Source: a virus. From it: a DNA stretch of 64,000 nucleotides. Where the stretch lies: IMG/VR virus record IMGVR_UViG_3300028831_000378, positions 1-64,000 of that record; one strand, given 5' to 3'. The position numbers and the translations under genes are program-made. This document shows positions 6,812-64,000 of this stretch, piece by piece (the first letter of the stretch is position 1; each line of letters opens with the position of its first letter). The notes under the pieces are model-generated. The model saw only the letters and a program-made list of their open reading frames with translations. It was not told the DNA's origin and did no database searches.

Positions 6812-6823
6812 GAGCGCAGCGCT

Positions 6824-9812: not shown

Positions 9813-10570
9813 GCGAGGAGCAGAATCCGATAGAGGTGGTGGGGAAGACGCTCGACGTCGTGTGTCATCGGCTTGATCGGCAAGCGAGCGTCATTCGCCT
9901 GATTTTGACGCTGGGCGCTGTGACGTTCATGCTCGCGGGCACTTCGATCGTGATCAATGGCTGTCGGGCACAGGATGCGAACTCGACGGCGGAGTCGGCG
10001 GAGAAGCGCAGCTCGTCGAACTCGGTGACGCTGCGGTGTCTCACGGAGTCCAAGACGCGGAGCGCGGCGACGCGATGCCTGAACATTCAGGCGGCGAAGG
10101 AGGGGCGCGCGGGGCGCGCCGGAGCGGCTGGTGCGCAGGGCAAGCGGGGGGTGGCTGGTGTGCAGGGCGCGAAGGGCGACAAGGGCGATCGAGGTGCGAC
10201 GGGTGCGACGGGTGGCCGTGGGCCGCAGGGGTTGCCCGGTGGGCAGGGGCCGAAGGGCGACAAGGGCGACAAGGGCGATCCGGGCGATGACGCGGTGGCG
10301 CAGCAGCGGCCGGTGCGTCCACCTCCGAGTGAGCTACCGCCGCGCCCGGATCGTCCGGACAGGCAGCCGCCGGAGCGCGGGCCGCAGGGCGATCAGGGGC
10401 CGAAGGGCGACAAGGGAGATAAGGGCGACAAGGGAGATAGGGGAGAGCAGGGGCCGGCGGGGGAGGCGCCGATTGACGTCGAGACGGCTTGTCCGAATGG
10501 GCTGCTGGGTGGACTAACGCCGGGCATCGCGACGGACCCGGACGGCGATCGGCACTACACGTGCCCATAG
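9809..10570 (+). CDS. membrane-anchored collagen-like (G-X-Y) repeat protein
   Basis: GTGA overlap at the start. TM segment (LILTLGAVTFMLAGTSIVI). Two G-X-Y blocks (GRAGRAGAAGAQGKRG... and GPQGDQGPKGDKGDKGDKGDRGEQGPAG) flank a Pro-rich linker. Confidence 0.7.
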   Translation: MSEEQNPIEVVGKTLDVVCHRLDRQASVIRLILTLGAVTFMLAGTSIVINGCRAQDANSTAESAEKRSSSNSVTLRCLTESKTRSAATRCLNIQAAKEGRAGRAGAAGAQGKRGVAGVQGAKGDKGDRGATGATGGRGPQGLPGGQGPKGDKGDKGDPGDDAVAQQRPVRPPPSELPPRPDRPDRQPPERGPQGDQGPKGDKGDKGDKGDRGEQGPAGEAPIDVETACPNGLLGGLTPGIATDPDGDRHYTCP

Positions 10571-10624: not shown

Positions 10625-12532
10625 GTGGCTACTCGGGTACGGCCGCGGCGGGCGCGGCGGGAGGATGGATTCGACTTCGCGGCAGCGGTCGACGGCGAGT
10701 GGCAGCTCGGCGAGGAGGAACGCGCCGTCGAGCGTCGGTCGATGATGGAGTACGCGGAGCTGATGCCCGAGCCCGGCGTGGGCGCGCTGCGGTTCGAGGA
10801 CTTCCCGTTTCAGGTCGGGTGGTATGCCGACGAGGTAGCGGACGCCGAAGAGGTCGTGTTCGCGAAGGGCGCGCAGGTCGGCGCGAGCGGGATGGGGGTG
10901 CGGTGGTGCATCCGGCAGGTCGATCAGTTCGGCGACACGGGCCTGTACGTGATGCCGACAGACGAGGTGGTCGAGAAGTTCGGCGACGAGCGCGTCGAGC
11001 CCGCGATCGAGGAGAGCCCTTATCTCCAGTCGCGGATCCGGCCGAAGTGGGTGCGGAACAAGCATCTGAAGCGCATCGGCCGGGCGTTCCTGCATATGCG
11101 CGGCTCGAACTCGAAGGCCGGCGCGCAGTCCGTCGCGGCTCAGTTTCTCTTTCTCGACGAGCGCGACCTGCTCGATCAGTCGAACCTGCCGATGATCATG
11201 CGGCGCGTGTCGGGCGCCCGGCAGCTCGGGAAGACGCCGAAGGTTCGTCACGCCGGCTATCCGCTGATCCCGAACGACGGGATCGACCTGCTGTGGCAGC
11301 AGTCGGACATGCGCGTGTGGCACGTCGTCTGTGATCGCTGCGGCGACGAGCAGCCGATCACGTGGGAAGAGAACGTGCGGTGGACGACGCCGGGGTTTCA
11401 CGAGGGCGAGCGCGAGGGCCAGGAGCACGGCGACGCGTCGCTGCCGCTGCGGGTGATGCGGCCGGGCTCGGACGCGCACGACGATCGCAAGGCGATCGAC
11501 GCGGTGTGGCGGCAGTGCCGGTCGTGCGAGGCGTCGTTCGAGGACTCCGGGCCGGGCAAGCGCGACGGGGTGCTGCGCAAGGGCCGATGGATCGCGCAGC
11601 GGCCGGGCGCGTCGCTGATCGGCTTTCACGTGTGGCGCGGGATGGTGCCCGTGACGGATCTCGTCGAGATGGTGCGGGCGTCACGGTCGACGAAGGACAT
11701 CGAACGCGAGCTGTTCTCCGCGCTCGATCTCGGGCGCCCGTACGCGTCGGGCGAGTCGTCGCTGACCGATGACGTGCTGATGCGCGCGTGCTCGTTCGGG
11801 ATCAATCGCCTGGATGCGTACTACGGGCCGAACCCGACGACGATGGGTGTCGACGTCGCCGGCGAGCGTGACCTGAACGTGTGGATCGACGAGCAGCTAC
11901 CGGCGGAGATCGAGGGGGTACCGAATCCGCGGCAGGCGCTCTGGATCGGGCGGTGCGCGACGTTCGAGGAGGTCGTGCGGCTGATGGAGCTGTTCCGGGT
12001 GCACGTGTGCGCAATCGACTCGAACCCGGAGCGGCGGATGGCGAAGGCGCTGCGCGCGACGTTCCCGGGCCGTGTGGTGCTCGTCGAGTACGACCATAGG
12101 TGGCTGTCGGAGCCGCTGAAGTTCGAGGCCGATCCGGAGGGGATGCCGCTGAAGGTGCGGGTGAATCGGACGGACGCGATCGACGGGATGATGGATGCGA
12201 TTCGGCAGGTGCGCTCGCGGCCGTTGCGGACGCCGCCGGCCGGCTGGATGGCGCAGATGAAGAGTCTGCACCGGCGCACGATCCTGAACACGAAGGGGTT
12301 GCCGGAGCGCGAGTACGTCACGACGGGCACGGACGGCGACGACTATGGGCACGCGGCGGTGTACGCGCTCGTGGCGACGGAGTTGTGGCGGATGTTCATC
12401 CGGTCGCAGGCGCAACTCGCGCAGGCGCGCGGCCAGCATGTCCCGGACGAGGAGATGGGCTTTCGGCGGGTGCGGCTGTCGGACTATGGTTCGGCGGAGA
12501 GTTGGCGGCCGGGTCTTCGGGGCTACGAATGA
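10625..12532 (+). CDS. terminase large subunit (GpA-like)
   Basis: 635 aa. FPFQVGWYADE..VVFAKGAQVGASG (GpA-type ATPase N-terminus). Internal CDRCGDE...CRSCEAS zinc ribbon. C-terminal nuclease-size domain. Confidence 0.8.
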   Translation: MATRVRPRRARREDGFDFAAAVDGEWQLGEEERAVERRSMMEYAELMPEPGVGALRFEDFPFQVGWYADEVADAEEVVFAKGAQVGASGMGVRWCIRQVDQFGDTGLYVMPTDEVVEKFGDERVEPAIEESPYLQSRIRPKWVRNKHLKRIGRAFLHMRGSNSKAGAQSVAAQFLFLDERDLLDQSNLPMIMRRVSGARQLGKTPKVRHAGYPLIPNDGIDLLWQQSDMRVWHVVCDRCGDEQPITWEENVRWTTPGFHEGEREGQEHGDASLPLRVMRPGSDAHDDRKAIDAVWRQCRSCEASFEDSGPGKRDGVLRKGRWIAQRPGASLIGFHVWRGMVPVTDLVEMVRASRSTKDIERELFSALDLGRPYASGESSLTDDVLMRACSFGINRLDAYYGPNPTTMGVDVAGERDLNVWIDEQLPAEIEGVPNPRQALWIGRCATFEEVVRLMELFRVHVCAIDSNPERRMAKALRATFPGRVVLVEYDHRWLSEPLKFEADPEGMPLKVRVNRTDAIDGMMDAIRQVRSRPLRTPPAGWMAQMKSLHRRTILNTKGLPEREYVTTGTDGDDYGHAAVYALVATELWRMFIRSQAQLAQARGQHVPDEEMGFRRVRLSDYGSAESWRPGLRGYE

Positions 12533-14753: not shown

Positions 14754-14797
14754 GATCATCGGGTTATCCTCTCGGGCTGACCCGAGTTCCGAGGAGG
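14754..14797 (+). promoter_or_regulatory. early-type promoter/operator plus leader, copy 2
   Basis: Dyad GATCAT-cgg-GTTATC at 14754-14768. TATCCT at 14765-14770. CTCGGG at 14771-14776 is inverted relative to gACCCGAGT at 14779-14787. GAGGAGG at 14791-14797 and ATG at 14803. Confidence 0.55.
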
Positions 14798-17929: not shown

Positions 17930-18150
17930 TCGAGGTGCAGATACCGGCGAGTGTGGAGCCGGCCGCGCTCGATCAGATCAAGGCCATCGCGAAGGCGCAT
18001 CCGGGCGAGCACGAGTTGCGGATCGTGCTCGTGAGTTCGAGGAGGATCGCCGGCGCGATGGTGCTCGGGCCGGAGTGGCGTTGCGATGGCGGCGCGCTGT
18101 GCGTGGCGCTGCTGGCGGAGTTCGGCGGGGTCCGGTTGCAGACGGGGTGA
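17926..18150 (+). CDS. hypothetical protein
   Basis: ATGA overlap. Its stop lies inside the next promoter dyad. Confidence 0.55.
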   Translation: MIEVQIPASVEPAALDQIKAIAKAHPGEHELRIVLVSSRRIAGAMVLGPEWRCDGGALCVALLAEFGGVRLQTG

Positions 18151-18197
18151 TAACTGCGCTATCGTGCGGCGTCTACCCGAGTTTGCGACATTGGAGG
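18149..18197 (+). promoter_or_regulatory. early-type promoter/operator plus leader, copy 3
   Basis: TTGCAG at 18136-18141 (-35-like, 18-nt spacer). Dyad GATAAC-tgc-GCTATC at 18149-18163. TATCGT at 18160-18165. TACCCGAGT at 18174-18182. GGAGG at 18193-18197 and ATG at 18202. Confidence 0.55.
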
Positions 18198-22095: not shown

Positions 22096-22136
22096 GATCA
22101 TCGTGTTATCATGTGTCGTACCCGAGTTGAAGGAGG
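22096..22136 (+). promoter_or_regulatory. early-type promoter/operator plus leader, copy 4
   Basis: Dyad GATCAT-cgt-GTTATC at 22096-22110. TATCAT at 22107-22112, then 6 nt, then TACCCGAGT at 22119-22127. GAAGGAGG at 22129-22136 and ATG at 22142. Confidence 0.6.
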
Positions 22137-23910: not shown

Positions 23911-24086
23911 ACGTCGAGCCGGGCTCGGGCCTGTCGCTTCGCGAGCTGAAGCGCTTCGAGCGTGCGGCGCGTGGGCGGACGGGCCGTAACCGTGGGCGGA
24001 TCCCGGCGCCTGGTGCTCGCATCGCGGAGACGGGGCCGGCGCGCGCGGCACGGTTGCGGAAGCTCGCGCGAGGTGAGGACGCGTGA
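23907..24086 (+). CDS. small basic protein (59 aa)
   Basis: GTGA overlaps at both ends. Arg-rich. Confidence 0.4.
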   Translation: MNVEPGSGLSLRELKRFERAARGRTGRNRGRIPAPGARIAETGPARAARLRKLARGEDA

Positions 24087-24925
24087 CGCCGTGGTGGCAG
24101 GGCCGGATGGTCGGCTTCGATTTGGAGACGACGAGCCCGCTGCCGGAGGAGGCGCGGATCGTGTCGGCGGCGATCGTGCTGTGCGGTGGCGGGAAGCCGA
24201 CGAAGACGCTGACGCTGCTGGCCGATCCCGGTGTCGAGATCCCGGAGGAGGCCGCGGCGGTGCATGGCATCACGACGGAGATCGCGCGGCGTGACGGCCG
24301 GCCGGCTGGGGAGGTCGTGGAGGCGATCCTCGGCGCGCTCGGGCCGCCGCTGCGCGCCGGGCTGCCGCTGGTGGTCTTCAACGCGCGGTATGACCTGACG
24401 GTCGCGCATCGCGAGGCGCGTCGGCACGGACTGGAGCCGCTAGTGATCGGTGATCAGGTCGTCGATCCGCACGTGGCGGACAAGTGGCTGGATCGCTACC
24501 GGAAGAGCTATCCCTACGGCGTGTCGCCGGAGCAGGCCGCGGCGCGAGGGATCATGTCGACGCGGACGCTGGAGGGCATGTGCGTGGTCTACGGCGCGGT
24601 GCTGGACGGTGCGCACGACGCGGCGTTCGATGCGGTCGCGGCCGTCCGGATCGCGTACAGGATGGGCCAGCGCGGGCAGGTCATCCGGCGCGTCCGGAAC
24701 GAGGAGGAGGGCCGCGAGCTGGCGATGCTGCGGCGCGAGTGGGAGACGGTCCGCAACGATCTCGGGCTGCTGCATCTCGCGCAGAAGCGGTGGGCGCTCG
24801 CGGAGCGCGCACGGTTCGCGGAGTACAAGCGTGGCAACGGCGAGTTGGAGGACGCCGATCGGATTGAGGCCGAGCGCGGGTGGCCCGTGCTCGACGTGAT
24901 GGCACACGAGGAGGTAGCAGCGTGA
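24083..24925 (+). CDS. DEDDh 3'-5' exonuclease (DnaQ/epsilon-like)
   Basis: VGFDLETT (Exo I), VVFNARYDLTV (Exo II) and GAHDAAFDAVA (Exo III, H-x4-D). Confidence 0.75.
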   Translation: MTPWWQGRMVGFDLETTSPLPEEARIVSAAIVLCGGGKPTKTLTLLADPGVEIPEEAAAVHGITTEIARRDGRPAGEVVEAILGALGPPLRAGLPLVVFNARYDLTVAHREARRHGLEPLVIGDQVVDPHVADKWLDRYRKSYPYGVSPEQAAARGIMSTRTLEGMCVVYGAVLDGAHDAAFDAVAAVRIAYRMGQRGQVIRRVRNEEEGRELAMLRREWETVRNDLGLLHLAQKRWALAERARFAEYKRGNGELEDADRIEAERGWPVLDVMAHEEVAA

Positions 24926-25001: not shown

Positions 25002-25313
25002 ATGCTCGATCTGGCGCGAAAGGCCGTGGTCGACGTGGTGGTCGCGTGGGGTTGGTCGGTAGGCGTGATCGCGGATCGCGCGATCGTCGCGGATCGGGAG
25101 AACGGCACAGACAAGGCGCTTTCGGGGCATCTCTTCGGCGAGCTGATAGGTGCGGTCGGCGACGGGCTGCTCCGCGACGACGAGGCTATGTGGCGCGCGA
25201 CGGAAGCGTTCATCGACGCGGGGCCGGACGAGTACGACTCAGAGGAGAGACAAGACCTGCGAGATCGCGTGGAGGCGGCTGTGGCCGCCGCATTCGGGAG
25301 GGAAGATGTCTAG
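25002..25313 (+). CDS. hypothetical acidic protein
   Basis: ATG 25002, an internal start of ORF 24987-25313. Confidence 0.5.
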   Translation: MLDLARKAVVDVVVAWGWSVGVIADRAIVADRENGTDKALSGHLFGELIGAVGDGLLRDDEAMWRATEAFIDAGPDEYDSEERQDLRDRVEAAVAAAFGREDV

Positions 25314-25533
25314 CCCTTCAATCACAGAAACGCATTGGCGGCAGGCTGGTCGTGACTACGGGTGGCCGCTGCGATGCCCGATCCCGGCGGAGCTGTGGGT
25401 GCCGCACGGGCAGGAGGCGCCGGCGGAGTGGCTGGCGCGCTTTCTCGACACATCGGCCGCGGAGGAGCGCCATCGCGTGCTCGTCGCGGCTCGTCGAGCG
25501 CGTAAGCGAGCGAAGGAGATAGGGCGTGTCTAG
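25306..25533 (+). CDS. hypothetical protein
   Basis: GGGAGGGAAG RBS then ATG 25306. Confidence 0.5.
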   Translation: MSSPSITETHWRQAGRDYGWPLRCPIPAELWVPHGQEAPAEWLARFLDTSAAEERHRVLVAARRARKRAKEIGRV

Positions 25534-25897
25534 GGTGAAGCGGTGTGCGTTGGCGGTTGTGGTGCCGGCGGTGGCGTTGACGTCCGGGGCGTCGAGCGCT
25601 GACGCGGCGGAGTTCCGACCGACGTGGGCGAGCTGGTATGGGCCGGGGCTGTGGGGGAACGTGCTGGGCTGCGGCGGCGTGCTGCACACGTGGACGCGTG
25701 GCGTGGCGCACAAGACGCTGGACTGCGGGACGAAGCTGCGGATCTGCGCGTCACGCTGCTCGACGGTGCGAGTCATCGACCGTGGCCCGTTCGTCGTGGG
25801 GCGCGAGTTTGACCTGACGGCGACGACGGCGCGGCAGGTGCGGCTGAAGGTTGGGCCGCGGGGTGCCGGCCGTATTCATGTGCGTCAGATCGGGTAG
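25526..25897 (+). CDS. RlpA-like double-psi beta-barrel (DPBB) lytic transglycosylase with signal peptide
   Basis: Signal peptide CALAVVVPAVALTSGASSADA. Contains ASWYGPGLWGN...VAHKTLDCGTKLRIC...VRVIDRGPFVVGREFDLT. Confidence 0.7.
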   Translation: MSRVKRCALAVVVPAVALTSGASSADAAEFRPTWASWYGPGLWGNVLGCGGVLHTWTRGVAHKTLDCGTKLRICASRCSTVRVIDRGPFVVGREFDLTATTARQVRLKVGPRGAGRIHVRQIG

Positions 25898-26008
25898 GAT
25901 CGGGCGCGTCACAGCACACGAGCGCATCGCGCTCACCTCCCCTGCGAACGGCTCGCGTTGCCTCTCCTCCCCCTACCTCCGGAGGCGGCGCGGGCCGTCC
26001 GCATCTTC

Positions 26009-26798: not shown

Positions 26799-28814
26799 GT
26801 GGCGCTGCTCGATCGTCCGCGGTTGCGTGCGCTCGCGGAAGCGGCGGAGGAGCGCATCGGGATCGGGGTGCGAACGACGGCGACGCTTCAGCGCGCCGCG
26901 GTCGTCGAGCAGGAGTTCGTGCAGCTCGCCGGCGAGGCCGAAGACCTGGCGCTGCACCACATGGACTACTTCGGCGGCCGGCCGTCCGAGCTGGGGACGG
27001 AGCGCCGGCGTCGAATCGCGCAGCGGTCGCGGATCGCGCTGAAGTTCGACCCGCTCGCCGGCGCGGAGGCGAATCTGCTGGCGGACTTCGCGTACGGGAA
27101 GGGCATCCCGACGCCAACGGCGCGCGACTCGAAGGTGCAGGCGATAATCGACGAGGCGTGGTCGGACGCGAATAATGAGGAGAAGCTGACGGGCTTTCAG
27201 GCGCAGCGGCGCCTGTCGAACGAGCTGCTGACGTCGGGCGAGCTGTTCCCGACGCTGTATGTCGCCGGCGGGAAGGTACGCGTCGGGCGGCTGGATCCCG
27301 ATCTCGTCGAAGCGGTCGTGCCCGATCCGGAGGATCGCCTGCGGCCGCTGTGGTACGTGTGCCGTGTTCGTCGCTACGAATGGGACTTCGAGAACGACAT
27401 GGCGAAGGTCGAGACGGATGTGCTCGAAGGAGGCCGGCCGAAGCTGCGCTACTGGAAGCACTGGCGCAACTACGACGACGCGGTGAAGGAGCGCGAGCAG
27501 GGGATCGTCGGCGACGACGAGCAAGCGCTGATCACGCCGCCGGCGCACAAGCAAGCCGAAGGCGTCGTCTTTCATCTCGCGATCAATCAGACGGGCGAGG
27601 AGTTGCGCGGCAATCCGCCGTGGGCGCGGTCGCTGCGGTTCTTCGAGGCGATGAACGTGCTGACCGAATCGCACGTCGTGATGGCGCAGGGCGCGTCGTC
27701 GTTCATCGCGAAGCGGGTGCTGAAGGGCACGCCGGGGCAGGTCACGAAGGCCGCGGGCTCGGTGCTGTCGCATCTGTCGGAGCTGGGCGCGAGCGGCCGG
27801 CTGGGCGACGAGCGCCGCACGCCGCAGGGTGACGGGCCGGCAGCGTTCGCTCCGGGGGCGCAGGCGCCGCCGTCGCCGGGGTCGTGGTGGACGGAGAACG
27901 AGTCGATGCGGATGGAGGCGCTGTCGCTGAACTCCGGGGCCGGGCAGATGGCGCAGACGGCGCAGATCGTGCGCGCGCCGATCGCGGCCGCGGCGGGGTT
28001 TGGGCAGCACTATCTCGGCGATGCGGGGAACGCGAACCTCGCGACCGCGAGCACGCTGGAGTTGCCGGCGACGATGCGGATCGAGTCGTGGCAGGAGTAC
28101 GCGCGGCAGATCCTCGTGTGGTTCACCGATCGCGCGATCGAGGCGGCGGTGAAGGCCGGTCGGCTCGGCGGCCTGGACGGGCATCCGGGCGAGGCGCCGA
28201 TCGGCGAGATGCGGTTGCACGAGGCCGAAGACCGGATGGCGATGGAGAAACGCACCGGGCTCGACCTTGGCTATGAGTTCGTGATGCCGTTCCCGGGACG
28301 CCGGCAACTCCCGGAGGTCGCGGCGCTCGTGACGGGGCTCGGGACGTCGTTCGATCCGAACGGCGTGAACATCCCGTTTCGTCGACATCTGCTGCGGTTC
28401 GCGTTCGAGCAGATGGGCATCGCGGACGTCGGGCACGCGGTGGAGGAGTGCATCCCGGAGGACGGGCTGCCGGGCGGCATCGGGCCGCAGTCGCAGCCGG
28501 TCGTCGATCCGGTCACGGGCGATCCGGTGCCGGGCGCGGCGGGTGGCGGCGGCCCGACGCCGAAGCCGACGCCGGGCGGGAAGAAGCCGTCGCCGGACGA
28601 GCCGCGCAACGTGCGTAAGCAGTCGACTCCGCCGGGTGAGCGCACGCAGTCGCGAGAGACGCTGATGGAGGCGTGGATCCCGGAGGACGTACGGGCCGTG
28701 ATGGGCGAGTTCGGCGATGGGACGGAGGCGCTGTTCGCGCACCTCGTCGGGGCGTCGGCGACGGAGGCGGCCGCGGCGCTCGCGGTCGCTGCGGGCGGGA
28801 ACGGCGCGAGCTGA
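26799..28814 (+). CDS. portal protein
   Basis: 671 aa, immediately upstream of the Mu-F/SPP1 gp7-like gene. Size and position are typical. No alternative function recognised. Confidence 0.7.
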   Translation: MALLDRPRLRALAEAAEERIGIGVRTTATLQRAAVVEQEFVQLAGEAEDLALHHMDYFGGRPSELGTERRRRIAQRSRIALKFDPLAGAEANLLADFAYGKGIPTPTARDSKVQAIIDEAWSDANNEEKLTGFQAQRRLSNELLTSGELFPTLYVAGGKVRVGRLDPDLVEAVVPDPEDRLRPLWYVCRVRRYEWDFENDMAKVETDVLEGGRPKLRYWKHWRNYDDAVKEREQGIVGDDEQALITPPAHKQAEGVVFHLAINQTGEELRGNPPWARSLRFFEAMNVLTESHVVMAQGASSFIAKRVLKGTPGQVTKAAGSVLSHLSELGASGRLGDERRTPQGDGPAAFAPGAQAPPSPGSWWTENESMRMEALSLNSGAGQMAQTAQIVRAPIAAAAGFGQHYLGDAGNANLATASTLELPATMRIESWQEYARQILVWFTDRAIEAAVKAGRLGGLDGHPGEAPIGEMRLHEAEDRMAMEKRTGLDLGYEFVMPFPGRRQLPEVAALVTGLGTSFDPNGVNIPFRRHLLRFAFEQMGIADVGHAVEECIPEDGLPGGIGPQSQPVVDPVTGDPVPGAAGGGGPTPKPTPGGKKPSPDEPRNVRKQSTPPGERTQSRETLMEAWIPEDVRAVMGEFGDGTEALFAHLVGASATEAAAALAVAAGGNGAS

Positions 28815-32540: not shown

Positions 32541-32585
32541 GATCACGCTGTTATCGTCCGGGCTCTACCCGAGACGACGAAGGAG
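32541..32585 (+). promoter_or_regulatory. early-type promoter/operator plus leader, copy 5
   Basis: Dyad GATCAC-gct-GTTATC at 32541-32555. TATCGT at 32552-32557. TACCCGAG at 32566-32573. GAAGGAG at 32579-32585 and GTG at 32594. Confidence 0.55.
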
Positions 32586-49971: not shown

Positions 49972-50027
49972 CCCGGCCGATCAGCGCGTTATCTTCCCGG
50001 GGGTCCGACGTACCCGAGTCGAAGGAG
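49967..50027 (+). promoter_or_regulatory. early-type promoter/operator plus leader, copy 6
   Basis: TTGTTC at 49967-49972 (17-nt spacer). Dyad GATCAG-cgc-GTTATC at 49979-49993. TATCTT at 49990-49995. TACCCGAGT at 50011-50019. GAAGGAG at 50021-50027 and ATG at 50028. Confidence 0.55.
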
Positions 50028-57666: not shown

Positions 57667-58352
57667 GCACCGATCCGTTCTACGCCGGCCTGGAGGAGTC
57701 CGAGGAGACGCCGGGGCCGGAGCAGCCGCTCGTCGAGATGCTGCCGGTGGAGGTGTGGCCGCCGCCGCACGCCGTGCTGGTGTGCGAGTTCGTGGTGATC
57801 GGCGAGCCGAAGCCGGCGGGCTCGAAGACGAGCGGCGTCGCGACGCGGATGGTCAACGGCAAGCGCGTCCCGATCATCGGGCCGAGCGGGATGCCGAAGA
57901 CGTTCACGAAAGACAGCTCGGGCGCGAAGGGCAAGTCGTGGCGAAACGACGTCGCGGAGGCCGGCCTGCGGCTGCGACCGTTCGACGAGCCGTTGGACTG
58001 CCGGCTGGCGGCGGAGTTCGTGTTCGTGACGCCGCACGCGCCGGCGGACTACTCCAAGCGCGACGGCCGGCTACGCGACTCCGTGCGTGTCGCGCCGCAC
58101 GTGCGCCCGGACGCCGTGAAGCTCGCGCGAGCTGTGGAGGACGCGCTGACGTCCGTGCTGTGGCACGACGACGCGAGGATCACGGAGGAGCGCATCCGGA
58201 AGGTGCACGTCCCGAAGGACAAGGGGCCGCAGCGCTGCGAGATCCGGCTGTGGCGTCTGCCGACGACGTGGGGCGAGCAGCGTGCGGCGCTGCTCCCGCG
58301 GTACGCGGCGGACGAGGCGGAGGCCGACGCGCCGCAGGGCGCGCTGCTGTAG
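57663..58352 (+). CDS. rusA: RusA-family Holliday junction resolvase
   Basis: VIGEPKPAGSK ... RPDAVKLARAVEDALTSVLWHDDARI is the RusA catalytic core. Confidence 0.7.
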   Translation: MSTDPFYAGLEESEETPGPEQPLVEMLPVEVWPPPHAVLVCEFVVIGEPKPAGSKTSGVATRMVNGKRVPIIGPSGMPKTFTKDSSGAKGKSWRNDVAEAGLRLRPFDEPLDCRLAAEFVFVTPHAPADYSKRDGRLRDSVRVAPHVRPDAVKLARAVEDALTSVLWHDDARITEERIRKVHVPKDKGPQRCEIRLWRLPTTWGEQRAALLPRYAADEAEADAPQGALL

Positions 58353-58354
58353 CC

Positions 58355-59896
58355 CTACGCGGCGGCCTGCTGCGGCGCCGCGTACTCCTCCGCCAGCGCC
58401 GCGATCTCGTCGTCTGAGACGTACACAGCTCGGACGGCGACGATCCCGCGTTTCTTGTCGTTCCACGCGAACCCGCGGCCCGGCTGATCGCGCAGGATCC
58501 GGTCGCACCGGATGCCGCTCGCCGCGGCGCCCTGCCAGAACATCATGTCCGTGTACTGCGCGGACAGCAGCCGCAGCGCGATCCGGTCCGGGATCTCGTC
58601 GCGCATGTCGACGACTTCCTTCCGCGGATTCTGGAGCGCGCCTAGCAGCGTGATCCCGACAGCGCGGCCCTTGTTCACGAGGAGCGTCGTCGCCATCTTG
58701 CACTCGTCGGCGATGTCCTTCGCGGCCTTCGCCTTCGACTCCGGGACCATGATCGACGCGAACTCGTCGATCATCAGCAGGATCAGCGGCTCGTCGATCG
58801 TGGGGACGTGCTGGCGCGTGGACTCCTTGTACTTCTGAGTGCGCGCGTTCATCTCCGTCACGAGGTCGGCGAGCATGTCGCGCATGTCCTTCGGCGTGCT
58901 GTCGCAGTAGCGCGTGTAGAGCGGGAAGCCGCGATACAGCTCCATCCCGCCCTTCGGGTCGATCGCCCATACCTGCACGAGGCCGTCGCGGATCGCGGGC
59001 GCCAGTCCCTTCAGGACCGACCACAGGATCGAGCCCTTCCCCGATCCGGTGAGGCCGGCGACGAGGATGTGCGAGCCGTGCAGCTTCAGCGTCCAGCGTT
59101 CGCCCTGCTCGGTCCGACCGACCGGGATGGCGCCGAAGTCAACGTCTGCGGTCGACTCCGGTACGGGGATCGCGGGTAGCGACTCGCTGAGGACGTCCTT
59201 TGTCGCGAACTCCATCACGATCTGGCCGGGGATGCGCTGGCCGCCGGCGTGCTTTCCCCACGCGAGCCGGCGCCGGCCCACGCTGTCGAGGATCCACATG
59301 AGCCGCAGCAGGCGGCCGGGGTCGCTGTAGCGCGGGTAGACGCGGCAGGACTGAGCGCCGAAGGCTTCAGCGAACGCGTCGACCCGGCGTTCGTACATCT
59401 CGACGGTGTGCGCCGCGAGCATCTTGACCTGCAACGTGTGACCGAACGGGCCGACGATCACCTTCCGAATCTTCGGCACCTTGTCGCGCCGGTGCTCCAA
59501 GGGAACGGTGAGCATGTTCTCCTGCATCTCTTCGTGCCACTTACGGGCGTAGACGCGCCGGGCGACCCACCACGGCCGTAGCCACGAACCGATCCAGCGT
59601 TCCCACGAGCCCCACCGTGCGATCCATTGCGCCCATCGCCGGCGCGGCCGGCGGAAGAAGCCGGAGCACCACGCGAACGTCCACCACGCGGAGACGAAGA
59701 CCACGACGTCGATCCCGAGCCCGATCGCAGTGCGCGGTCCGAAGAGCACGACGAGCGCGCCGGCGAGCACGATCGCGAGGGCGCGCTGCGGGAACCACCA
59801 CGCGTAGAGCACGACGAGCACGATCGTCTGCACGAGCCAGATGACGGGAACGACGATCCAGTCGCCGATACTCACGAGCGTCCCCTCCGAAGCCAC
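58355..59896 (-). CDS. FtsK/SpoIIIE-family (TraB-like) DNA translocase ATPase with N-terminal TM segments
   Basis: Walker A GLTGSGKGS and Walker B LLMIDEF. Three to four N-terminal TM helices. GTG start. Converges on rusA with only a 2-nt gap. Confidence 0.8.
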   Translation of the reverse strand: MASEGTLVSIGDWIVVPVIWLVQTIVLVVLYAWWFPQRALAIVLAGALVVLFGPRTAIGLGIDVVVFVSAWWTFAWCSGFFRRPRRRWAQWIARWGSWERWIGSWLRPWWVARRVYARKWHEEMQENMLTVPLEHRRDKVPKIRKVIVGPFGHTLQVKMLAAHTVEMYERRVDAFAEAFGAQSCRVYPRYSDPGRLLRLMWILDSVGRRRLAWGKHAGGQRIPGQIVMEFATKDVLSESLPAIPVPESTADVDFGAIPVGRTEQGERWTLKLHGSHILVAGLTGSGKGSILWSVLKGLAPAIRDGLVQVWAIDPKGGMELYRGFPLYTRYCDSTPKDMRDMLADLVTEMNARTQKYKESTRQHVPTIDEPLILLMIDEFASIMVPESKAKAAKDIADECKMATTLLVNKGRAVGITLLGALQNPRKEVVDMRDEIPDRIALRLLSAQYTDMMFWQGAAASGIRCDRILRDQPGRGFAWNDKKRGIVAVRAVYVSDDEIAALAEEYAAPQQAAA

Positions 59897-60306
59897 GCAC
59901 GGTAGGTCGGGCCGATCTTCGCGCCGTAGGACGCGAGTTCGCGCTCAGCGTGGTTAGCGCGGTCGGCGGCCCACTTGGCGCCGTCCGCAGCGATCTTCGC
60001 CGCGTCGGCGGCGTGCTCGGCGGCGTTGGCGTAGCGCTGCGCGTCGCGGGTGGCTTCGCGTCGCTCGTCGGCGTAGGAGTACGGATCGACGACGGCGGCG
60101 CTGTCGCACTTGTGCGCGGCCTGACGCGCGTGAGCCGCCGCCTGATCGGCTTCAGCTACGCATCGTGCGACGTCGCCTTCGAGATCAGCATCGACGGAGA
60201 CGGTGGACGTGATCGAGCGTGCGCGGGCCGCTTCACGGTCGGCGCGTTGCACTGCCGCTCGGGCACGGCGACGCGCTTCGACTCGTTCCTGCGACCCGCG
60301 CGCCAT
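59872..60306 (-). CDS. hypothetical helical Ala-rich protein
   Basis: ORF-track frame. Its 3' end overlaps the FtsK-like start by 25 nt. Confidence 0.55.
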   Translation of the reverse strand: MARGSQERVEARRRARAAVQRADREAARARSITSTVSVDADLEGDVARCVAEADQAAAHARQAAHKCDSAAVVDPYSYADERREATRDAQRYANAAEHAADAAKIAADGAKWAADRANHAERELASYGAKIGPTYRAWLRRGRS

Positions 60307-60309
60307 TCG

Positions 60310-60831
60310 TCAAGGCGCAGCGACGAGCCGGTAGCGCTGGCCGTTGCAGTAGGGGCGGAGCTGTCCGCCCATGCTTGCGCCCTGCGCGCCGTTCGGGCGA
60401 GCGGGGACGTACCGGATGTCCGCCGCGTTGGTCGAGCGGCCCTCCGCGGGCGGGTACTCGTCGCGCGCCTTCCCGGGCCGCGTCTTCGTGACGCCGGCGA
60501 GCCGAAACGCGGCCTGTCGGCGCTGGTCTTCGCCGGTGTCGTTCTTCACGAGCACGACGGGCCAGCGCTTGCCGTCATCGACGATCGTCTTCCCGTCGCT
60601 GAGCGTGTTGCGGCCGTGGCGAGCATCGACGATGTGACGCCAGTTGTCCGGGTACTTCGACACGGACACACGAATCGGTATGACGCGATCGGGTTCGCAT
60701 CGTGAGTAGCCCTCCGCGTGAGCGGCCGCCATCTTCGCACGGGGACTCTCGAACTGCGCCCAATACCACGAGTAGGCGAACGAGCCGGCGAAGAAGAGGA
60801 CGACGAGGCGCGCGCGCAGAGAGAGCCCCAT
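60310..60831 (-). CDS. NucA/NucB-like DNase with N-terminal membrane anchor or signal
   Basis: GGGAGGG RBS then ATG 60831. TM segment LRARLVVLFFAGSFAYSWYW. ARDEYPPAEGRS...IRYVPARPNGAQGASMG matches the DNase_NucA_NucB DEYPfA...N..qG core by eye. Confidence 0.6.
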   Translation of the reverse strand: MGLSLRARLVVLFFAGSFAYSWYWAQFESPRAKMAAAHAEGYSRCEPDRVIPIRVSVSKYPDNWRHIVDARHGRNTLSDGKTIVDDGKRWPVVLVKNDTGEDQRRQAAFRLAGVTKTRPGKARDEYPPAEGRSTNAADIRYVPARPNGAQGASMGGQLRPYCNGQRYRLVAAP

Positions 60832-61241
60832 CAGCGCGACCCTCCCGGCGACGAGCGCTGCGGACGGTCCTGCCGGCCGTCGAGATGCGGACCCACGTTG
60901 AACTCCGAGCCACGCTGCCACGGAGGCGTCGTCTGCGGCGAAGGCGCCCGTCCCGCGAACGCGAGAAACCAGATGGTCACGACGACGGTAGCCGCGATCG
61001 AGATGTAGAACGCGACGAGAGCGGGCCAGCTCCGACGCCGCTCAGCAGGGGGAGCCGAAGGCACCTGCTGCTCGTAGTAGCCCGGAGGCGGCTCGTGACG
61101 AACGACCACCTCGTGAATCACACGCTCAGAGGGCGCCACAGAGCCACTGGAGCGCCTGGGAGCAACCGGGCGGGCCACCACGTCGCCTTCGACGATCTCA
61201 CCGTGGAGAACGGGCCTGCGCTGCGGCAGCCGAGACTTCAC
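60831..61241 (-). CDS. membrane protein (single TM)
   Basis: GTG start. WPALVAFYISIAATVVVTIWFLAF. TGATG coupling to the nuclease gene. Confidence 0.55.
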   Translation of the reverse strand: MKSRLPQRRPVLHGEIVEGDVVARPVAPRRSSGSVAPSERVIHEVVVRHEPPPGYYEQQVPSAPPAERRRSWPALVAFYISIAATVVVTIWFLAFAGRAPSPQTTPPWQRGSEFNVGPHLDGRQDRPQRSSPGGSR

Positions 61242-61350
61242 GATGACCCGCCGATCTGAGAGGTGCTGCGGGGCCAGCGTCCGCCGCGGCGGCTAGGCGG
61301 GCGAAGCCCTGAGCCTAGCCGAGGCCGCCGTTCGGCGTGACGCGTCGGGT

Positions 61351-61471
61351 GGTTTGTGGGGGTTTGGGACTCGGGCATGGTTCCTCCGGTGTTGGTGGTT
61401 TGGAGGTTACGGGGTGGGGACGTCGTGTTGCCGGCGCGTGGGGTCGCGTCGGTCGGTTTGTGCGGGGTTTG
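61351..61471. repeat. GGTTTG iteron-like repeats in a non-coding region
   Basis: GGTTTG at 61351, 61361, 61397, 61455 and 61466. Two pairs are spaced 10-11 bp apart. The region is G/T-rich, unlike the flanking DNA. Confidence 0.5.
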
Positions 61472-61585
61472 TGTGCCCGGGTAGGGTGGGCTGTGGACGG
61501 GGAGCCGCTGTGGCGCTAGCACGCAGAGGGGGCGGCCACGGCGGGACGCGGCGAGCCTGCTAGGGGGCGGCGAACGCGTGTTCGG

Positions 61586-61930
61586 CTAGCGGAGGAGGTG
61601 GGGGAGTTCGGGGACGATGTGGGCGAGGAGGAGGACGGCTGTGATGCCGAGGGTGAGGGCGAGGAGGGGTTCGAGGGTGGCTTGGAGGGGTGTGGCGCGG
61701 CGGTAGCGGCGGCTGAAGGGGTGGCGGCGTTTCGCGGGTCGGCGTTTCGCGGGTGCCTTGGGCTTTGGCTTCGCGGCGGGTTTCGGGGCTGGCCGCGGCG
61801 CCGGCGTCACGACGATGGTTGGCGGCGGGTCGGGTGTGTCGCCGGTGAGGACGAGGATGGTCGTCTCGGGCTCGCCGAAGATGTCGGCGGCGGTGGGGGT
61901 GGCGGGTGGCTGTGGTGGGCGGCGGCGCAT
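61586..61930 (-). CDS. Pro/Lys-rich protein with C-terminal TM anchor
   Basis: TAATG coupling with the upstream gene. C-terminal LLALTLGITAVLLLAHIV. Confidence 0.5.
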   Translation of the reverse strand: MRRRPPQPPATPTAADIFGEPETTILVLTGDTPDPPPTIVVTPAPRPAPKPAAKPKPKAPAKRRPAKRRHPFSRRYRRATPLQATLEPLLALTLGITAVLLLAHIVPELPHLLR

Positions 61931-62196
61931 TAGAGGAGGGTGGGGCGGTTGCAGTGGGTGTGGTTGGCGGCGAACATCGCGGGGATGTCGGCGGCGAAGA
62001 CGGTGGTGTGGCGGCCGCGGCGTTCGGTGGTGCCGCAGCCGTGGCAGGTGAGTTGCCAGCCGTAGCGGTAGCCGTCTGTGCGGGTGATGAGTGCGGCGGT
62101 GACGGTGGGGCTGCCGGGGACGGGGCGGGGGGTGCCGATGGTGTGGCGGCCGAGGAGGGTGTTTTCGATTGCGTGGTCGGGGGTCGGCATGATCAT
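61930..62196 (-). CDS. hypothetical protein (88 aa)
   Basis: Only the C-terminal part of ORF 61930-62805 looks protein-like (MIMPTPDHAIENTLLGRH...CHGCG...). GGAG lies upstream of ATG 62190/62196. Confidence 0.45.
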   Translation of the reverse strand: MIMPTPDHAIENTLLGRHTIGTPRPVPGSPTVTAALITRTDGYRYGWQLTCHGCGTTERRGRHTTVFAADIPAMFAANHTHCNRPTLL

Positions 62197-62483
62197 CGGC
62201 TCCGGAGTGCCCATGCGGTGAGGGCGAGGCCGGTGGGGGTGCGGACGGTGCCGGTCGGCTGATCTTCGATGTCGAGGTAGCCGGGGATGCCTACGGCGGT
62301 GAGGTTGGCGATGATGGTGGGGCGGGTGCGGAGGTCGGGTCGTCCGGGGCGGTAGTCGGCGGCGTGGGCGGCGCGGCGTGCGGCGGCTTGTGCGGTGCGG
62401 TGGGCGTGGCGCCAGTAGCGGCGTTGGCGGCGGAGGGTGTCGCCGGTGGTGGTGGGGCGTGGGGCGAAGAGGTTGCGGAGCAT
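62193..62483 (-). CDS. hypothetical protein (96 aa)
   Basis: ORF-track frame. Stop overlaps the next start. Confidence 0.45.
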   Translation of the reverse strand: MLRNLFAPRPTTTGDTLRRQRRYWRHAHRTAQAAARRAAHAADYRPGRPDLRTRPTIIANLTAVGIPGYLDIEDQPTGTVRTPTGLALTAWALRSR

Positions 62484-62498
62484 GGTCGCGGGGTCCGG

Positions 62499-62912
62499 TT
62501 AGCTGCGCTGGTGGGCGCCGGGGTTTGCCACGGGGTCTTCGTCGTACAGGGCGACGAGGCCGGAGCCGGCGAGGTCGGCGCGCCAGTAGCCGTTTGGCAG
62601 CAGCTCGACGCGGCGTGCGGTGGTGGGGCGGCCGCGGTAGCGGACTGTGCAGTGGGTGTAGGTGGTGGGCGCTGGCGTGTCGTCGAGCTGGAGGCGCATG
62701 TCGAGCTGGTAGAGCTGCTGTGCGAGGAGGTCGCGAAGTTGTGTCTGCGCCTGGGCGAACTGCTCGTCGGTCATGCGGTAGCCGTTGGCGTGCGCGACGC
62801 GGCACAGCAGGGACTCGGCGGCGTCGTCGGCGAGGCTGGCGGAGTTGGCGTCGCGTTGGGCGACGGGAATCGAGAGCGGCATGGTGATCTCCGTGATGGG
62901 TGACTCGGGCAT
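62499..62912 (-). CDS. hypothetical protein, first gene of reverse cassette (leaderless start candidate)
   Basis: ATG 62912 lies 6 nt after a minus-strand TATCAT (62919-62924) and begins ATGCCCGAGT. An alternative is ATG 62882, preceded by GGAG. Confidence 0.55.
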   Translation of the reverse strand: MPESPITEITMPLSIPVAQRDANSASLADDAAESLLCRVAHANGYRMTDEQFAQAQTQLRDLLAQQLYQLDMRLQLDDTPAPTTYTHCTVRYRGRPTTARRVELLPNGYWRADLAGSGLVALYDEDPVANPGAHQRS

Positions 62913-62918
62913 AGCCCT

Positions 62919-62937
62919 ATGATAACGGAGTTATCGC
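62919..62937. promoter_or_regulatory. divergent control region with perfect palindrome GATAAC-gga-GTTATC
   Basis: Palindrome at 62921-62935. Minus-strand -10 TATCAT at 62919-62924 and plus-strand TATCGC at 62932-37. Confidence 0.55.
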
Positions 62938-63038
62938 TGCGTAGCAAGGGTTTCGAGGTGGATTCGGGGACGGTTTCGGGTGCTTTGGGGGTCGCGGTTA
63001 GCCTGTCGATGGACCCTGATTTGAGGAGGCGAAGGTGT

Positions 63039-63386
63039 ATGGCTGATCCCGTTGTGCCGCCTGCCCGTCCGGTGTTGCCGGAGCGTCCGGCGGCGAAGGT
63101 GCCGGAGTTGCCGTGGGCGACGCGGAAGGCGCTCGCTGGGCAGTGGCCGGAGTTGGAGGAGACGGTGAGCGCGGGTATCGCGTGGGCTCCGGCGGAAGCG
63201 GAGTGGCAGGCGTTGCGCGCGGTGGCGTGGGTGCAGGCGAAGGCCGACGCGGTGTTCGAGGTCGCGCCGGCGAAGATCGCGGAGGGTCGGGCGTGGCTGG
63301 ATCAGCGGCTCGGCGCGGCGTGGGTGGGCGTGAAGGCGTGGGTGCGGAAGTACCTGGGCCTGAAGGCGGAGAAGCCGGCGAAGTAG
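63039..63386 (+). CDS. hypothetical protein
   Basis: GAGGAGG RBS then ATG 63039. The upstream part of ORF 62919 spans the operator. Confidence 0.55.
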   Translation: MADPVVPPARPVLPERPAAKVPELPWATRKALAGQWPELEETVSAGIAWAPAEAEWQALRAVAWVQAKADAVFEVAPAKIAEGRAWLDQRLGAAWVGVKAWVRKYLGLKAEKPAK

Positions 63387-63410
63387 TTCGCGGCCGGGAC
63401 GTTCGAGCGG

Positions 63411-63438
63411 GGTATCGGCTGCGGGCGGGCCGTACCCT
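63411..63438 (+). promoter_or_regulatory. late-type promoter, copy 5 (head operon)
   Basis: GGTATCGG at 63411-63418. ATC, then 16 nt, then TACCCT at 63433-63438. GTG 63446 lies 7 nt downstream. Confidence 0.55.
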
Positions 63439-63445
63439 CTCGGGC

Positions 63446-64000
63446 GTGGACGGCGACGAGAACGCGGCGCTGACGTTCGACGAGATCCGGCTGTTCGGGC
63501 CGGTCGTGGAGTCGGTCGTGTGGACTCCGGCGTTCATCGCGGAGCGCCGCGCGCCGATCGCGGTGCAGGCGGGCCGGCCGAAGCTGGGGCCGGTCTTCAA
63601 CTCGGAGGGCGTCGGGAAGGCCGTGATGATCCGGCCGTGCGTGTCGCGGGGGAAGCGGATTCGGGGGCTGCCGCCGATCTACACGCCGAAGATGCTGGAG
63701 GCGAACGCGGGCGTGTTCGCGGGCTGGCCGATGTATCTCGATCACGTGCCGGCGCAGCTCGCGGAGACGGCGGCGAAGCGAGGGCGTTCGGTGAAGGAGT
63801 TGGGCGGGCAGGTCTTGACGCCGTATTGGGATCGCGACTTCACGCAGGAGGGCGACGCGGACTTCGGGTATCAGCAGGGCGGCGCGCTCGCGGAGATTTG
63901 GGCGACGCCGTTTCTGCGGAGCCTCGTCGGCGAGAACCCGAACCTGCTGCACACGAGCATCGCGGCGTGGCCGACGTCGGGTAAGCCGGGGACGGCGCCG
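63446..64000 (+). CDS. head-module protein, possibly prohead protease/scaffold (3' end outside window)
   Basis: Frame is open from GTG 63446 to the window edge, so it is absent from the ORF track. WPMYLDHVP...RSVKELGGQVL resembles Mu gpI-type protease/scaffold N-termini (weak). Confidence 0.5.
   Translation, partial: MDGDENAALTFDEIRLFGPVVESVVWTPAFIAERRAPIAVQAGRPKLGPVFNSEGVGKAVMIRPCVSRGKRIRGLPPIYTPKMLEANAGVFAGWPMYLDHVPAQLAETAAKRGRSVKELGGQVLTPYWDRDFTQEGDADFGYQQGGALAEIWATPFLRSLVGENPNLLHTSIAAWPTSGKPGTAP

Follow-up and report, generated by a model that had tools for sequence, protein, structure and literature searches.

A Conjugation-Type DNA Translocase Kept beside a NucA-Type Nuclease in a Lineage of Uncultivated Actinobacterial Phages

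Introduction

What a tailed phage might do with a membrane DNA pump and a surface nuclease encoded almost side by side is the question raised by the locus examined here. The DNA is a stretch of 64,000 nucleotides (nt) from a virus (IMG/VR record IMGVR_UViG_3300028831_000378, positions 1 to 64,000), hereafter called the window, and the locus is a cassette of eight genes, g1 to g8, coded on the minus strand at 58355–62912. Judging from its gene content (terminase, portal, sheath, baseplate, and lysin) and from a GC content of ~70% along its whole length, the window comes from a contractile-tailed phage of a high-GC actinobacterium. A first-pass annotation, made from the sequence alone, had recognized in the cassette an FtsK/SpoIIIE ATPase and a NucA/NucB-like DNase, and had proposed that it was a prophage-expressed exclusion or defense module, a transfer module like those of actinomycete integrative and conjugative elements (AICEs), or a device for scavenging host DNA.

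Here we report that the ATPase gene (g8), whose product is of the AICE Tra type, the nuclease gene (g6), and a gene for a small helical protein (g7) keep a fixed order in seven loci, and that a conserved hairpin lies at the edge of this core. We hold the nature of these parts and their fixed association to be well supported and have little doubt about either. What they do together is more tentative: the cassette may be a DNA-transport module derived from AICEs that a phage lineage has retained, perhaps as a means for its DNA to spread from cell to cell, a reading to which we give a probability of roughly 40%.

Results

The Translocase, the Nuclease, and the Helical Protein

The cassette comprises the following elements, for which the functional descriptions are predictions:

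g1, 62499..62882, minus strand: 127 amino acids (aa), or 137 aa if started at 62912; GC content at third codon positions (GC3) of 0.90; not conserved in relatives.
g2, 62193..62483, minus strand: 96 aa; GC3 of 0.86; no Pfam or PHROG family match.
g3, 61930..62196, minus strand: 88 aa; its frame holds the GC3 signal over 61930–62190.
g4, 61586..61930, minus strand: 114 aa; Pro/Lys-rich, tail-anchored protein with a hydrophobic segment at residues 88–106.
Gap between g4 and g5, 61242–61585: 344 nt, containing the conserved hairpin.
Doubtful small open reading frame (ORF), 61238..61522, minus strand: 46–94 aa, spanning the hairpin.
Hairpin or palindrome, 61290..61321, minus strand: 32 nt, with a 9-bp lower stem, a 3-nt bulge, and a 4-bp upper stem, GGGC-TTC-GCCC.
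g5, 60831..61241, minus strand: 136 aa; single-pass membrane protein with a helix at residues 75–93.
g6, 60310..60831, minus strand: 173 aa; nuclease of the NucA/NucB family with an N-terminal membrane anchor.
g7, 59872..60306, minus strand: 144 aa; Ala/Arg-rich three-helix-bundle protein, cytoplasmic.
g8, 58355..59875, minus strand: 506 aa; membrane-anchored FtsK/SpoIIIE translocase of the AICE Tra type.

The hidden Markov model search suggested for g8 gave a clear match to Pfam FtsK_SpoIIIE (PF01580; 43.2 bits for a cut-off of 24, E=4.2e-11), and a second match was obtained with the FtsK family of PHROG (PHROG 1358, 5.8e-32). The N-terminus of the protein holds three hydrophobic segments within residues 14–75, and a strongly basic stretch comes after them. 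The Walker A (G-x-x-G-x-GKGS) and Walker B (DE) motifs are invariant (G274, G277, G279, K280, G281, S282, D370, and E371) in 20 relatives from phages and AICEs, and so are motor residues downstream of Walker B across both groups. From its sequence, g8 is thus predicted to be a membrane-anchored, catalytically intact ATPase of the Tra/FtsK type. The relatives that have been characterized assemble into hexameric pores in the membrane, through which double-stranded DNA (dsDNA) is pumped, and TraB acts together with Spd proteins (PMC4447253).

The closest relatives of g8, which are 43–92% identical to it, are encoded on metagenomic contigs of up to 86 kb (56–86 kb for the longest), and those at 33–40% identity are AICE Tra proteins. 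Homology to the latter includes the N-terminal membrane segment and amounts to 33–38% identity over 78–97% of the length, as exemplified by the Tra of Micromonospora pMR2 (36% over 78%) and by a Nonomuraea protein (33% over 95%). Relatives at 37–38% identity lie in canonical AICE layouts, composed of Tra, RepSA, and Xis/Int with NUDIX and GntR genes nearby, one on a metagenomic contig and one in Pedococcus. That the full-length relatives of g8 are AICE Tra proteins in Tra-RepSA-Xis-Int arrays confirms the kinship with conjugative translocases that had been proposed. A TraB of the Streptomyces plasmid type, to which the pump was likened at first, it is not by the equivalog model NF041214, with which g8 reached 26.9 bits for a cut-off of 800.

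As a single sequence, g6 scored below the threshold of the DNase_NucA_NucB model (PF14040; 16.6–17 bits vs. 23.8), but all 28 members of its family matched the same model (28/28, best 1.6e-5), so that this proposed check succeeded at the level of the family and not of the individual protein. A profile of the g6 family aligned with solved NucB (5omt) at E=5.4e-14, covering nearly the whole mature enzyme. The AlphaFold2 (AF2) model of g6 has a mean predicted confidence (pLDDT) of 93.3, and a Foldseek search with this model returned NucB structures only (9fj7, 6ejs, and 5omt; E=2e-8 to 3e-7, target TM-scores of 0.81–0.84). Four residues, H66, D124, E125, and N147, are invariant in the alignment of the 28 family members, as is an RDEYPPA block; they align with H53, D93, E94, and N117 of BlNucB, all of which were found to be essential by mutagenesis (PMC5758888). 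We conclude that g6 belongs to the NucA/NucB family, with a predicted DNase activity, as the first reading of the sequence had it.

The N-terminal anchor of that reading is also found, as a hydrophobic helix at residues 5–28 that is preceded by arginines in the AF2 model and the sequence. Because this arrangement and two cysteines that are nearly invariant in the 28 sequences (C45 and C162) fit such a location, the nuclease domain is probably outside the cytoplasm. In Bacillus subtilis, NucA is anchored by an N-terminal helix, has a periplasmic nuclease domain, and supplies DNA termini for transport (PMC8262900).

The phage-type nuclease forms a narrow branch of a wider superfamily of ~1,200 representatives: in an exhaustive profile search it made up three clusters at 50% identity, after which the scores fell from 231 to 137 bits. 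The nuclease profile had no match in the reference genomes of 185,579 species, and no homolog of g6 was found in 50,697 isolated phages. Actinobacterial plasmids yielded no member of the branch, the plasmid matches being only RHS toxins and a Clostridium NucA/NucB protein, and the JGI metagenome contigs yielded one unrelated Excalibur-type NucB beside a sigma factor.

For g7, described initially as a helical Ala-rich protein, AF2 gives a three-helix bundle (pLDDT 90.9). It has no significant fold match in the PDB and no Pfam or NCBIfam match. A role as an inhibitor resembling Nin (ComJ) was considered and could not be demonstrated, as no similarity of sequence or fold was found.

Conservation of the Core across Relatives

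The order g6-g7-g8 is kept in six other loci, namely L001, L003, L004, the P0020 contig (56 kb), L013, and the more distant L011. The trio thus occurs in seven loci spanning 43–92% Tra identity, with stop and start codons that overlap or are spaced by 3 nt. The co-occurrence of nuclease and translocase genes, which had been singled out for examination, is therefore systematic, and 16 source-contig sizes are common to the lists of FtsK and nuclease matches. Moreover, the phage-type nuclease subfamily occurs only beside this Tra. Taken together, the fixed gene order and the confinement of the nuclease to the neighborhood of Tra point to a joint function.

The other genes are less constant. The g7 protein shares 40–43% identity with its positional counterparts in L001 and L003, and charged helical analogs occupy that position in L004, L011, and L014. 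Single-pass proteins are encoded at the g5 position in L001, L003, and L014, with the same architecture and no detectable sequence similarity; a homology of g5 to those of L001, considered as a possibility, was dropped for this lack of similarity. The upstream genes g1–g4 are not conserved in relatives. At the DNA level, the cassette matched no isolated phage, and a tblastx comparison of its region with L001 gave high-GC noise only.

In L014, a 99-aa protein with an N-terminal hydrophobic segment sits at the nuclease position; we rejected the idea that this ORF is a decayed nuclease (hhalign probability of 2.8%). Between the genes for the helical protein and Tra of the same locus lies a gene with an NPPYG motif (6374–6886), which, read by eye, is possibly a Dam-like adenine methyltransferase.

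The small proteins of the phages and of the AICEs have no detectable similarity, with one exception. A short ORF upstream of Tra opens with a Walker-A-like peptide, LIAGTTGSGKGSMLW in the phage and LIGGSTGAGKASVLW in an AICE. It is found at 8000–8092 in L001, 4000–4188 in L003, and 7482–7796 in the AICE locus L009, and the window is without this segment. The version in L003 matches that in L009 at E=4e-5, and the rest of the L009 protein looks like a winged helix. This ORF may be an AICE-derived accessory protein or the remnant of a tra duplication.

A Conserved Hairpin at the Edge of the Core

The hairpin at 61290–61321 is present in a single copy in the window, at the 5' edge of the conserved core. 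It was also found in L001, L003, L006, L013, and L014, always 40–100 nt upstream of the gene that opens the core. In L001, L003, and L006 it is identical or nearly so, though the proteins there are only 50–63% identical to those of the window, and in L013 and L014 the apical GGGC-TTC-GCCC is kept while the lower stem is altered on both sides. In the alignment of the six sequences, 97.4% of the cells are paired, against 24–49% in controls with slid partners, and three pairs show compensatory changes; the z-score of the RNA fold is -3.1. One change from G-C to G-U fits an RNA hairpin of the sense strand; with only six sequences, an RNA structure and a symmetric DNA site cannot be told apart. Since L014, in which no nuclease is detectable, keeps the hairpin, the hairpin goes with Tra. 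It matches no Rfam family and is absent from the genomes of the 185,579 species. A parallel exists in Streptomyces plasmids, whose small spd ORFs contain conserved palindromes to which SpdA binds (PMC4170104).

The small ORF that spans the hairpin (61238..61522) has atypical codon-position GC values (0.72 at second positions and 0.74 at third positions). Its stop codon overlaps the start of g5 as GTGA, and its conservation is limited to the stretch encoded by the palindrome. It may code for a leader peptide and not be a protein gene proper.

Promoter and Regulation

The cassette begins at a relatively AT-rich intergenic region, which holds the following elements; sites of the same motif elsewhere in the window are given with them.

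62921..62935: perfect palindrome GATAAC-GGA-GTTATC, read in the sequence; candidate operator overlapping the -10 element of the cassette.
62919..62947, minus strand: sigma-70-like promoter (TTGCTA, 17 nt, TATCAT) reading into the cassette.
569–583, 14754–14768, 18149–18163, 22096–22110, 32541–32555, and 49979–49993: motif sites, each before one of six plus-strand operons.

The palindrome thus lies at a divergent promoter, where the first-pass annotation had placed an operator, and the promoter is the only promoter-like match in 57800–63400 (shuffled sequences gave a mean of 0.2). The operator motif family has eight members in the window, for 0.25 expected. Their shared architecture consists of GATMAY-N3-GYTATC, which holds a -10-like TATCNT, then 8–12 nt, (T/C)(A/G)CCCGAGT, a Shine-Dalgarno sequence, and a start codon, the leader spacing reaching ~18 nt at 49979. 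The sites at 22096 and 49979 come directly after terminators made of a hairpin and a T-run, and the site at 45690, which has no leader, may be a chance match. This arrangement suggests one regulator for about seven transcription units. A motif common to the promoter of the cassette and to six phage operons on the plus strand argues against expression in the lysogen only, and we infer that the cassette is wired into the general transcription program of the phage and is not a stand-apart lysogenic-conversion gene.

Domains of integrases, partition proteins, and repressors were seen neither among the ~50 window proteins scanned, a scan that was not exhaustive and covered 64 kb of what is probably an 86-kb contig, nor in ~50 kb of flanks of three relatives (L001, L003, and L004). 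The relatives are free, phage-sized IMG/VR contigs, L001 being an IMG/VR genome of 68.8 kb. The earlier view of a prophage-expressed cassette thus finds no support here.

On the side of the plus-strand gene of the divergent region, a 22-bp direct repeat (~1.9 copies, 80% match) is found at 62949–62991. This gene probably starts at 63039, behind an AGGAGG ribosome-binding site, and not at 62919.

Cassette Layout and Gene Starts

According to codon-position GC, coding is on the minus strand over 58355–62912 and on the plus strand elsewhere, which bears out the statement that the cassette is the sole minus-strand block in the 64 kb. Only two other minus-strand ORFs of the window passed the filter. 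The first (9111–9758) looks spurious, the plus-strand ORF 9336–9812 reading as a real protein, and the second (25318–25776) is doubtful, with a fair GC3 (0.83) and an odd sequence. Around the latter, ~645 bp (25313–25958) are without a convincing plus-strand gene; this stretch might hold a further small gene on the minus strand or an origin, or might not code at all.

We revised the gene map on the evidence of ribosome-binding sites, homologs, and the placing of stop and start codons. Stop and start codons overlap or nearly touch at five of the seven junctions (ATGA, TAATG, TGATG, a 3-nt gap, and GTGA), an arrangement that would suit the translational coupling proposed for all eight ORFs and that is not found at g1/g2 (15-nt gap) or g4/g5 (344-nt gap). 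The ATG of g3 (62196) overlaps the stop of g2 as ATGA, with GGAG upstream, and the start of g4 overlaps the stop of g3 as TAATG. For g6, the start at ATG 60831 gives a 173-aa protein identical to the JGI protein P0121. For g8, GTG 59875, which overlaps the upstream stop as GTGA, gives 506 aa and agrees with the JGI call P0309, a 506-aa FtsK-like protein of the same cluster at an identity of at least 90%; P0121 and P0309 are encoded on one JGI contig of 86,185 bp, of which the window is therefore probably a 64-kb part. The 513-aa ATPase of the initial description thus retains its identity and N-terminal membrane helices at a corrected length.

The start of g1 is probably ATG 62882, which has GGAG 7 nt ahead of it; the alternative ATG 62912 lies inside the conserved CCCGAGT leader motif. 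The starts given earlier for g8 and g6, and probably also that for g1, were set aside on stop/start geometry. No match to g1 was found in Pfam, PHROG, NCBIfam, or PADLOC. The descriptions of g4 as a Pro/Lys-rich tail-anchored protein and of g5 as a protein with a single membrane helix were both upheld, the helices occupying residues 88–106 of 114 and 75–93 of 136, respectively.

The plus-strand GC skew stays positive (0.18–0.31) across g1–g6 (60001–64000), and g8 alone brings it to ~0. The sense strands of g1–g6 are therefore C-rich, unlike those of all other genes in the window. This is due in part to Pro-rich coding, and may also reflect a different origin for the upstream genes.

The Phage Genome

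Other features of the window are:

10625–12532 region: terminase (PHROG 675 match, 5.5e-63).
Structural proteins: tail sheath (match at 1.7e-46), baseplate wedge (5.6e-47), and portal.
A 1427-aa protein with a transglycosylase-like domain.
An NlpC/P60 lysin, RecT, a PD-(D/E)XK nuclease, a DnaC/IstB-like loader, a PAPS-reductase-like protein, and RusA.
58304..58403: imperfect inverted repeat (repeats I2, I9, and I15) spanning the ends at which the RusA-like gene and g8 converge; possible bidirectional terminator.

No close relative of the terminase was found, the best matches being 23% identical in isolated phages and 22–29% in plasmid records, and the window has no tRNA genes. The terminase and portal genes (10625–12532 and 26799–28814) are ~14 kb apart, an unusual layout for a tailed phage. 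The genes between them are mostly small and without family matches, except for an RNase_T-type exonuclease gene (24083–24925). Upstream of the terminase, and apart from the tail module, are encoded a 765-aa protein with a Laminin_G_3/concanavalin-like domain and a 253-aa protein with collagen triple-helix repeats (6824–9121 and 9809–10570), possibly fibers or decoration proteins.

The flanks of the cassette in the three relatives encode Ku, DUF5131, HARE-HTH, and methyltransferases: Ku genes lie at 16318–17325 in L003 and 12398–12669 in L004, with DUF5131, HARE-HTH, and N6/N4 methyltransferase genes. Ku also occurs in mycobacteriophages Omega and Corndog, where it recircularizes the genome.

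Two 8-mers are unevenly distributed between the strands of the window: GCTCGGGC has 49 copies on the plus strand vs. 4 on the minus strand, and CGGGCTCG has 47 vs. 11. FtsK-type motors read polar 8-mers, and this bias may merely mirror one-directional coding.

Discussion

A Proposed Transport Module Derived from AICEs

The scenario that we favor is that an uncultivated lineage of actinobacterial tailed phages acquired a DNA-transport module from AICEs and retained it. The operon would be transcribed during infection, from a promoter bearing the operator-like motif of six other phage operons. Tra would assemble in the host membrane in company with the small membrane proteins, on the model of TraB and the Spd proteins, and its hexamer would pump dsDNA across the membrane. 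The wall-facing nuclease would cut DNA on the outer side and there produce free ends, or trim them, in the manner of NucA, and the hairpin would be either an element of operon control or a cis site that marks DNA for transfer. The most likely role of such a module would be the contact-dependent, virion-less movement of phage DNA into neighboring cells or hyphal compartments. SpdB2 homologs of the actinophages phiC31 and VWB have been proposed to spread phage DNA (PMC4447253). In its most specific form, in which the replicating genome would be passed directly to neighbors through a conjugation-derived pump and an end-making nuclease, with the hairpin as the transfer-recognition site, we find the scenario doubtful.

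Several observations weigh against a role in transfer. A wall-facing, non-specific DNase seems counter-productive for the movement of naked DNA, except where that DNA has some protection or the enzyme does no more than make ends. The g8 protein ends ~10–15 residues past the last motor block, with no TraB-type C-terminal winged helix apparent from the sequence, and no clustered 8-mer array resembling clt was found outside coding repeats, the one conserved palindrome being present in its stead. As no genes for plasmid maintenance or integration were seen, a true conjugative lifestyle would be without an obvious resting replicon. L014, whose Tra is 34% identical, keeps the hairpin and has no detectable nuclease, so the nuclease is not obligatory for the role of Tra. 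Finally, the mycelial lifestyle of the host is an assumption.

Comparison with Known Systems

Like g8, the Tra proteins of AICEs (Micromonospora pMR2 and the elements in L009 and L010) have a single motor domain, invariant Walker A and B motifs, and a similar size (~500–550 aa), with full-length homology at 33–38% identity. Small co-directional genes lie upstream of Tra in both settings, and the Walker-A-like upstream ORF of L009 has its counterpart in the phage loci L001 and L003. In contrast to AICEs, the phage Tra has no adjacent RepSA, excisionase, or integrase, and it has a conserved hairpin of its own; its partners, the NucA/NucB nuclease and the three-helix protein, are both lacking in the AICEs examined. 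No RepSA or integrase was found in the scanned proteins, and the neighbors of the cassette are the genes for RusA, the PAPS-reductase-like protein, the DnaC/IstB-like loader, and RecT and the tail genes. The original proposal of an AICE-like transfer module is therefore supported as regards the homology of Tra and not as regards the replication and integration genes that would accompany it.

The TraB-Spd systems of Streptomyces plasmids (pSVH1 and pIJ101) likewise combine a membrane-bound FtsK-like pump with small membrane proteins, encoded in one operon whose stop and start codons overlap (PMC4447253), and contain, in the transfer region, cis sites that are palindromic or repeated (PMC4447253, PMC4170104, PMC3583192). 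The cassette differs from them in having no TraB equivalog, no clt array of 8-mers, and no four-helix SpdB2-like protein, and in having a nuclease. Another precedent is the Streptomyces plasmid-phage pZL12 (phiZL12), a phage genome with a conjugative tra gene that is reported to depend on two adjacent genes for transfer (as cited in PMC3583192). It is a plasmid prophage that bears ParAB (PMC4487206), and no partition genes were seen in the window.

The nuclease has its best-known counterparts in B. subtilis, in the NucA (ComI)/Nin pair and the secreted NucB, which have the fold of g6 and the four essential residues (PMC5758888). Like NucA, g6 has an N-terminal membrane helix, a catalytic domain that is probably external, and a small gene directly after its own, g7 (PMC5758888, PMC8262900). 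Identity to NucA/NucB is only ~25–28%, however, and the motif is A/D-RDE-YPPA vs. DRDE-WP. The all-helical g7 is not detectably related to solved structures, and the partner of g6 is a dsDNA pump, vs. ComEC/ComFA for NucA.

FtsK-like translocases of the FtsK/SpoIIIE family are known from actinophages (cluster J, Gilgamesh, and Thermobifida phage P1312; PMC4569894). Their identity to g8 (26–31%) is restricted to the motor domain, and no nuclease is annotated beside the Gilgamesh gene.

Alternative Explanations

The alternative that survives best is exclusion or defense, in which a membrane complex would, during infection or in a carrier state of some kind, block foreign DNA (superinfecting phages, AICEs, or plasmids, for instance), the surface nuclease destroying what is exposed and the pump capturing or expelling it. 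Phage operons for membrane proteins that lie beside regulatory regions are often exclusion genes, and the probable location of the nuclease outside the cytoplasm would suit such a role. Functions that restrict redundant transfer are found in AICEs themselves (NUDIX pif-like genes adjoin Tra in L010), and g1–g4 are variable, as expected of conflict genes. Yet a wall-facing nuclease would not meet DNA injected through a tail tube, the promoter motif is common to six other phage operons, and lysogeny genes were not found among the scanned window proteins. A known defense module is not what the cassette encodes, at least as far as PADLOC covers them: no system matched, the FtsK domain gave generic matches to SspH and mad8 only, and the other eight proteins gave none. 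To our knowledge, no FtsK-based exclusion system has been described, and we judge this explanation unlikely.

The two enzymes might instead be co-expressed and serve mechanistically independent functions, the nuclease clearing host DNA released by lysis or DNA held in the matrix so that virions can diffuse, and the FtsK-like ATPase handling phage or host DNA at the membrane or septum, for example by clearing it from closing septa. NucB is an extracellular DNase that disperses biofilms (PMC5758888), and FtsK-like genes occur without a nuclease in cluster J mycobacteriophages and Streptomyces phage Gilgamesh, as does Tra, within the limits of detection, in L014. This view sits poorly with the strictly fixed order of the nuclease, helical protein, and Tra genes and their tight junctions in seven loci, and with a nuclease subfamily that occurs only beside this Tra, and we think it improbable.

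A third possibility is that g6 is a DNase toxin acting on neighboring cells, with g7 as its cytoplasmic inhibitor (the part played by Nin for NucA) and the FtsK-family ATPase as a protein exporter similar to EssC/EccC. NucA/NucB domains do occur as C-terminal toxin domains of RHS proteins, and g7 holds the position of nin after nucA (PMC5758888, PMC8262900). The matches of g8 to the type VII EssC/EccC models are weak and local, though, at 25–32 bits for cut-offs of 346–778, its ATPase domain is single, and its full-length relatives are the DNA translocases of AICEs. Besides, g6 begins with a plain membrane helix, with no LXG/WXG-like domain apparent by sequence (no search was aimed at one), and g7 has no structural match to any solved protein. 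We consider this possibility very improbable. The least probable is the scavenging or disposal of DNA, in which the nuclease would make ends on extracellular or host DNA and the pump would import it for nucleotides or expel it: the pairing formally resembles the DNA-entry nuclease and translocase of competence (PMC8262900), but the phage already has the host chromosome and cytoplasmic nucleases at its disposal (the PD-(D/E)XK protein, the RNase_T-type exonuclease, and RusA), and neither a precedent nor nucleotide-salvage genes nearby were found.

Novelty and Significance

Actinophage FtsK-like genes (PMC4569894) and one plasmid-phage with a tra gene were known already. The statement of the first-pass annotation that no described system has this composition must therefore be tempered by two partial precedents, pZL12 (PMC3583192) and the SpdB2 homologs of actinophages (PMC4447253). 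It holds for the pairing with a nuclease, which was found neither in the literature searched nor in the 50,697 isolated phages. A phage lineage in which an AICE-type Tra is fixed to a NucA-type nuclease and a helical partner, together with a hairpin, appears to be undescribed in that literature, as does the absence of this set from cultured genomes and isolated phages.

By our own reasoning, a circular dsDNA must somehow thread through a ring-shaped pump of the TraB/FtsK type. The fixed pairing of a pump with a nuclease that makes ends is a testable suggestion as to how this might be achieved. Both the 32-nt element and the core of three genes are of a size that lends itself to synthesis and testing, whether the module serves transfer or exclusion. 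If it were an exclusion device, it would be of a new type. If the transport reading is true, it would provide an experimental handle on the idea, present in the literature, that phages borrow machinery of the TraB/Spd type for mycelial spread, and a module that moves phage DNA between cells would blur the line between infection and conjugation in actinomycetes.

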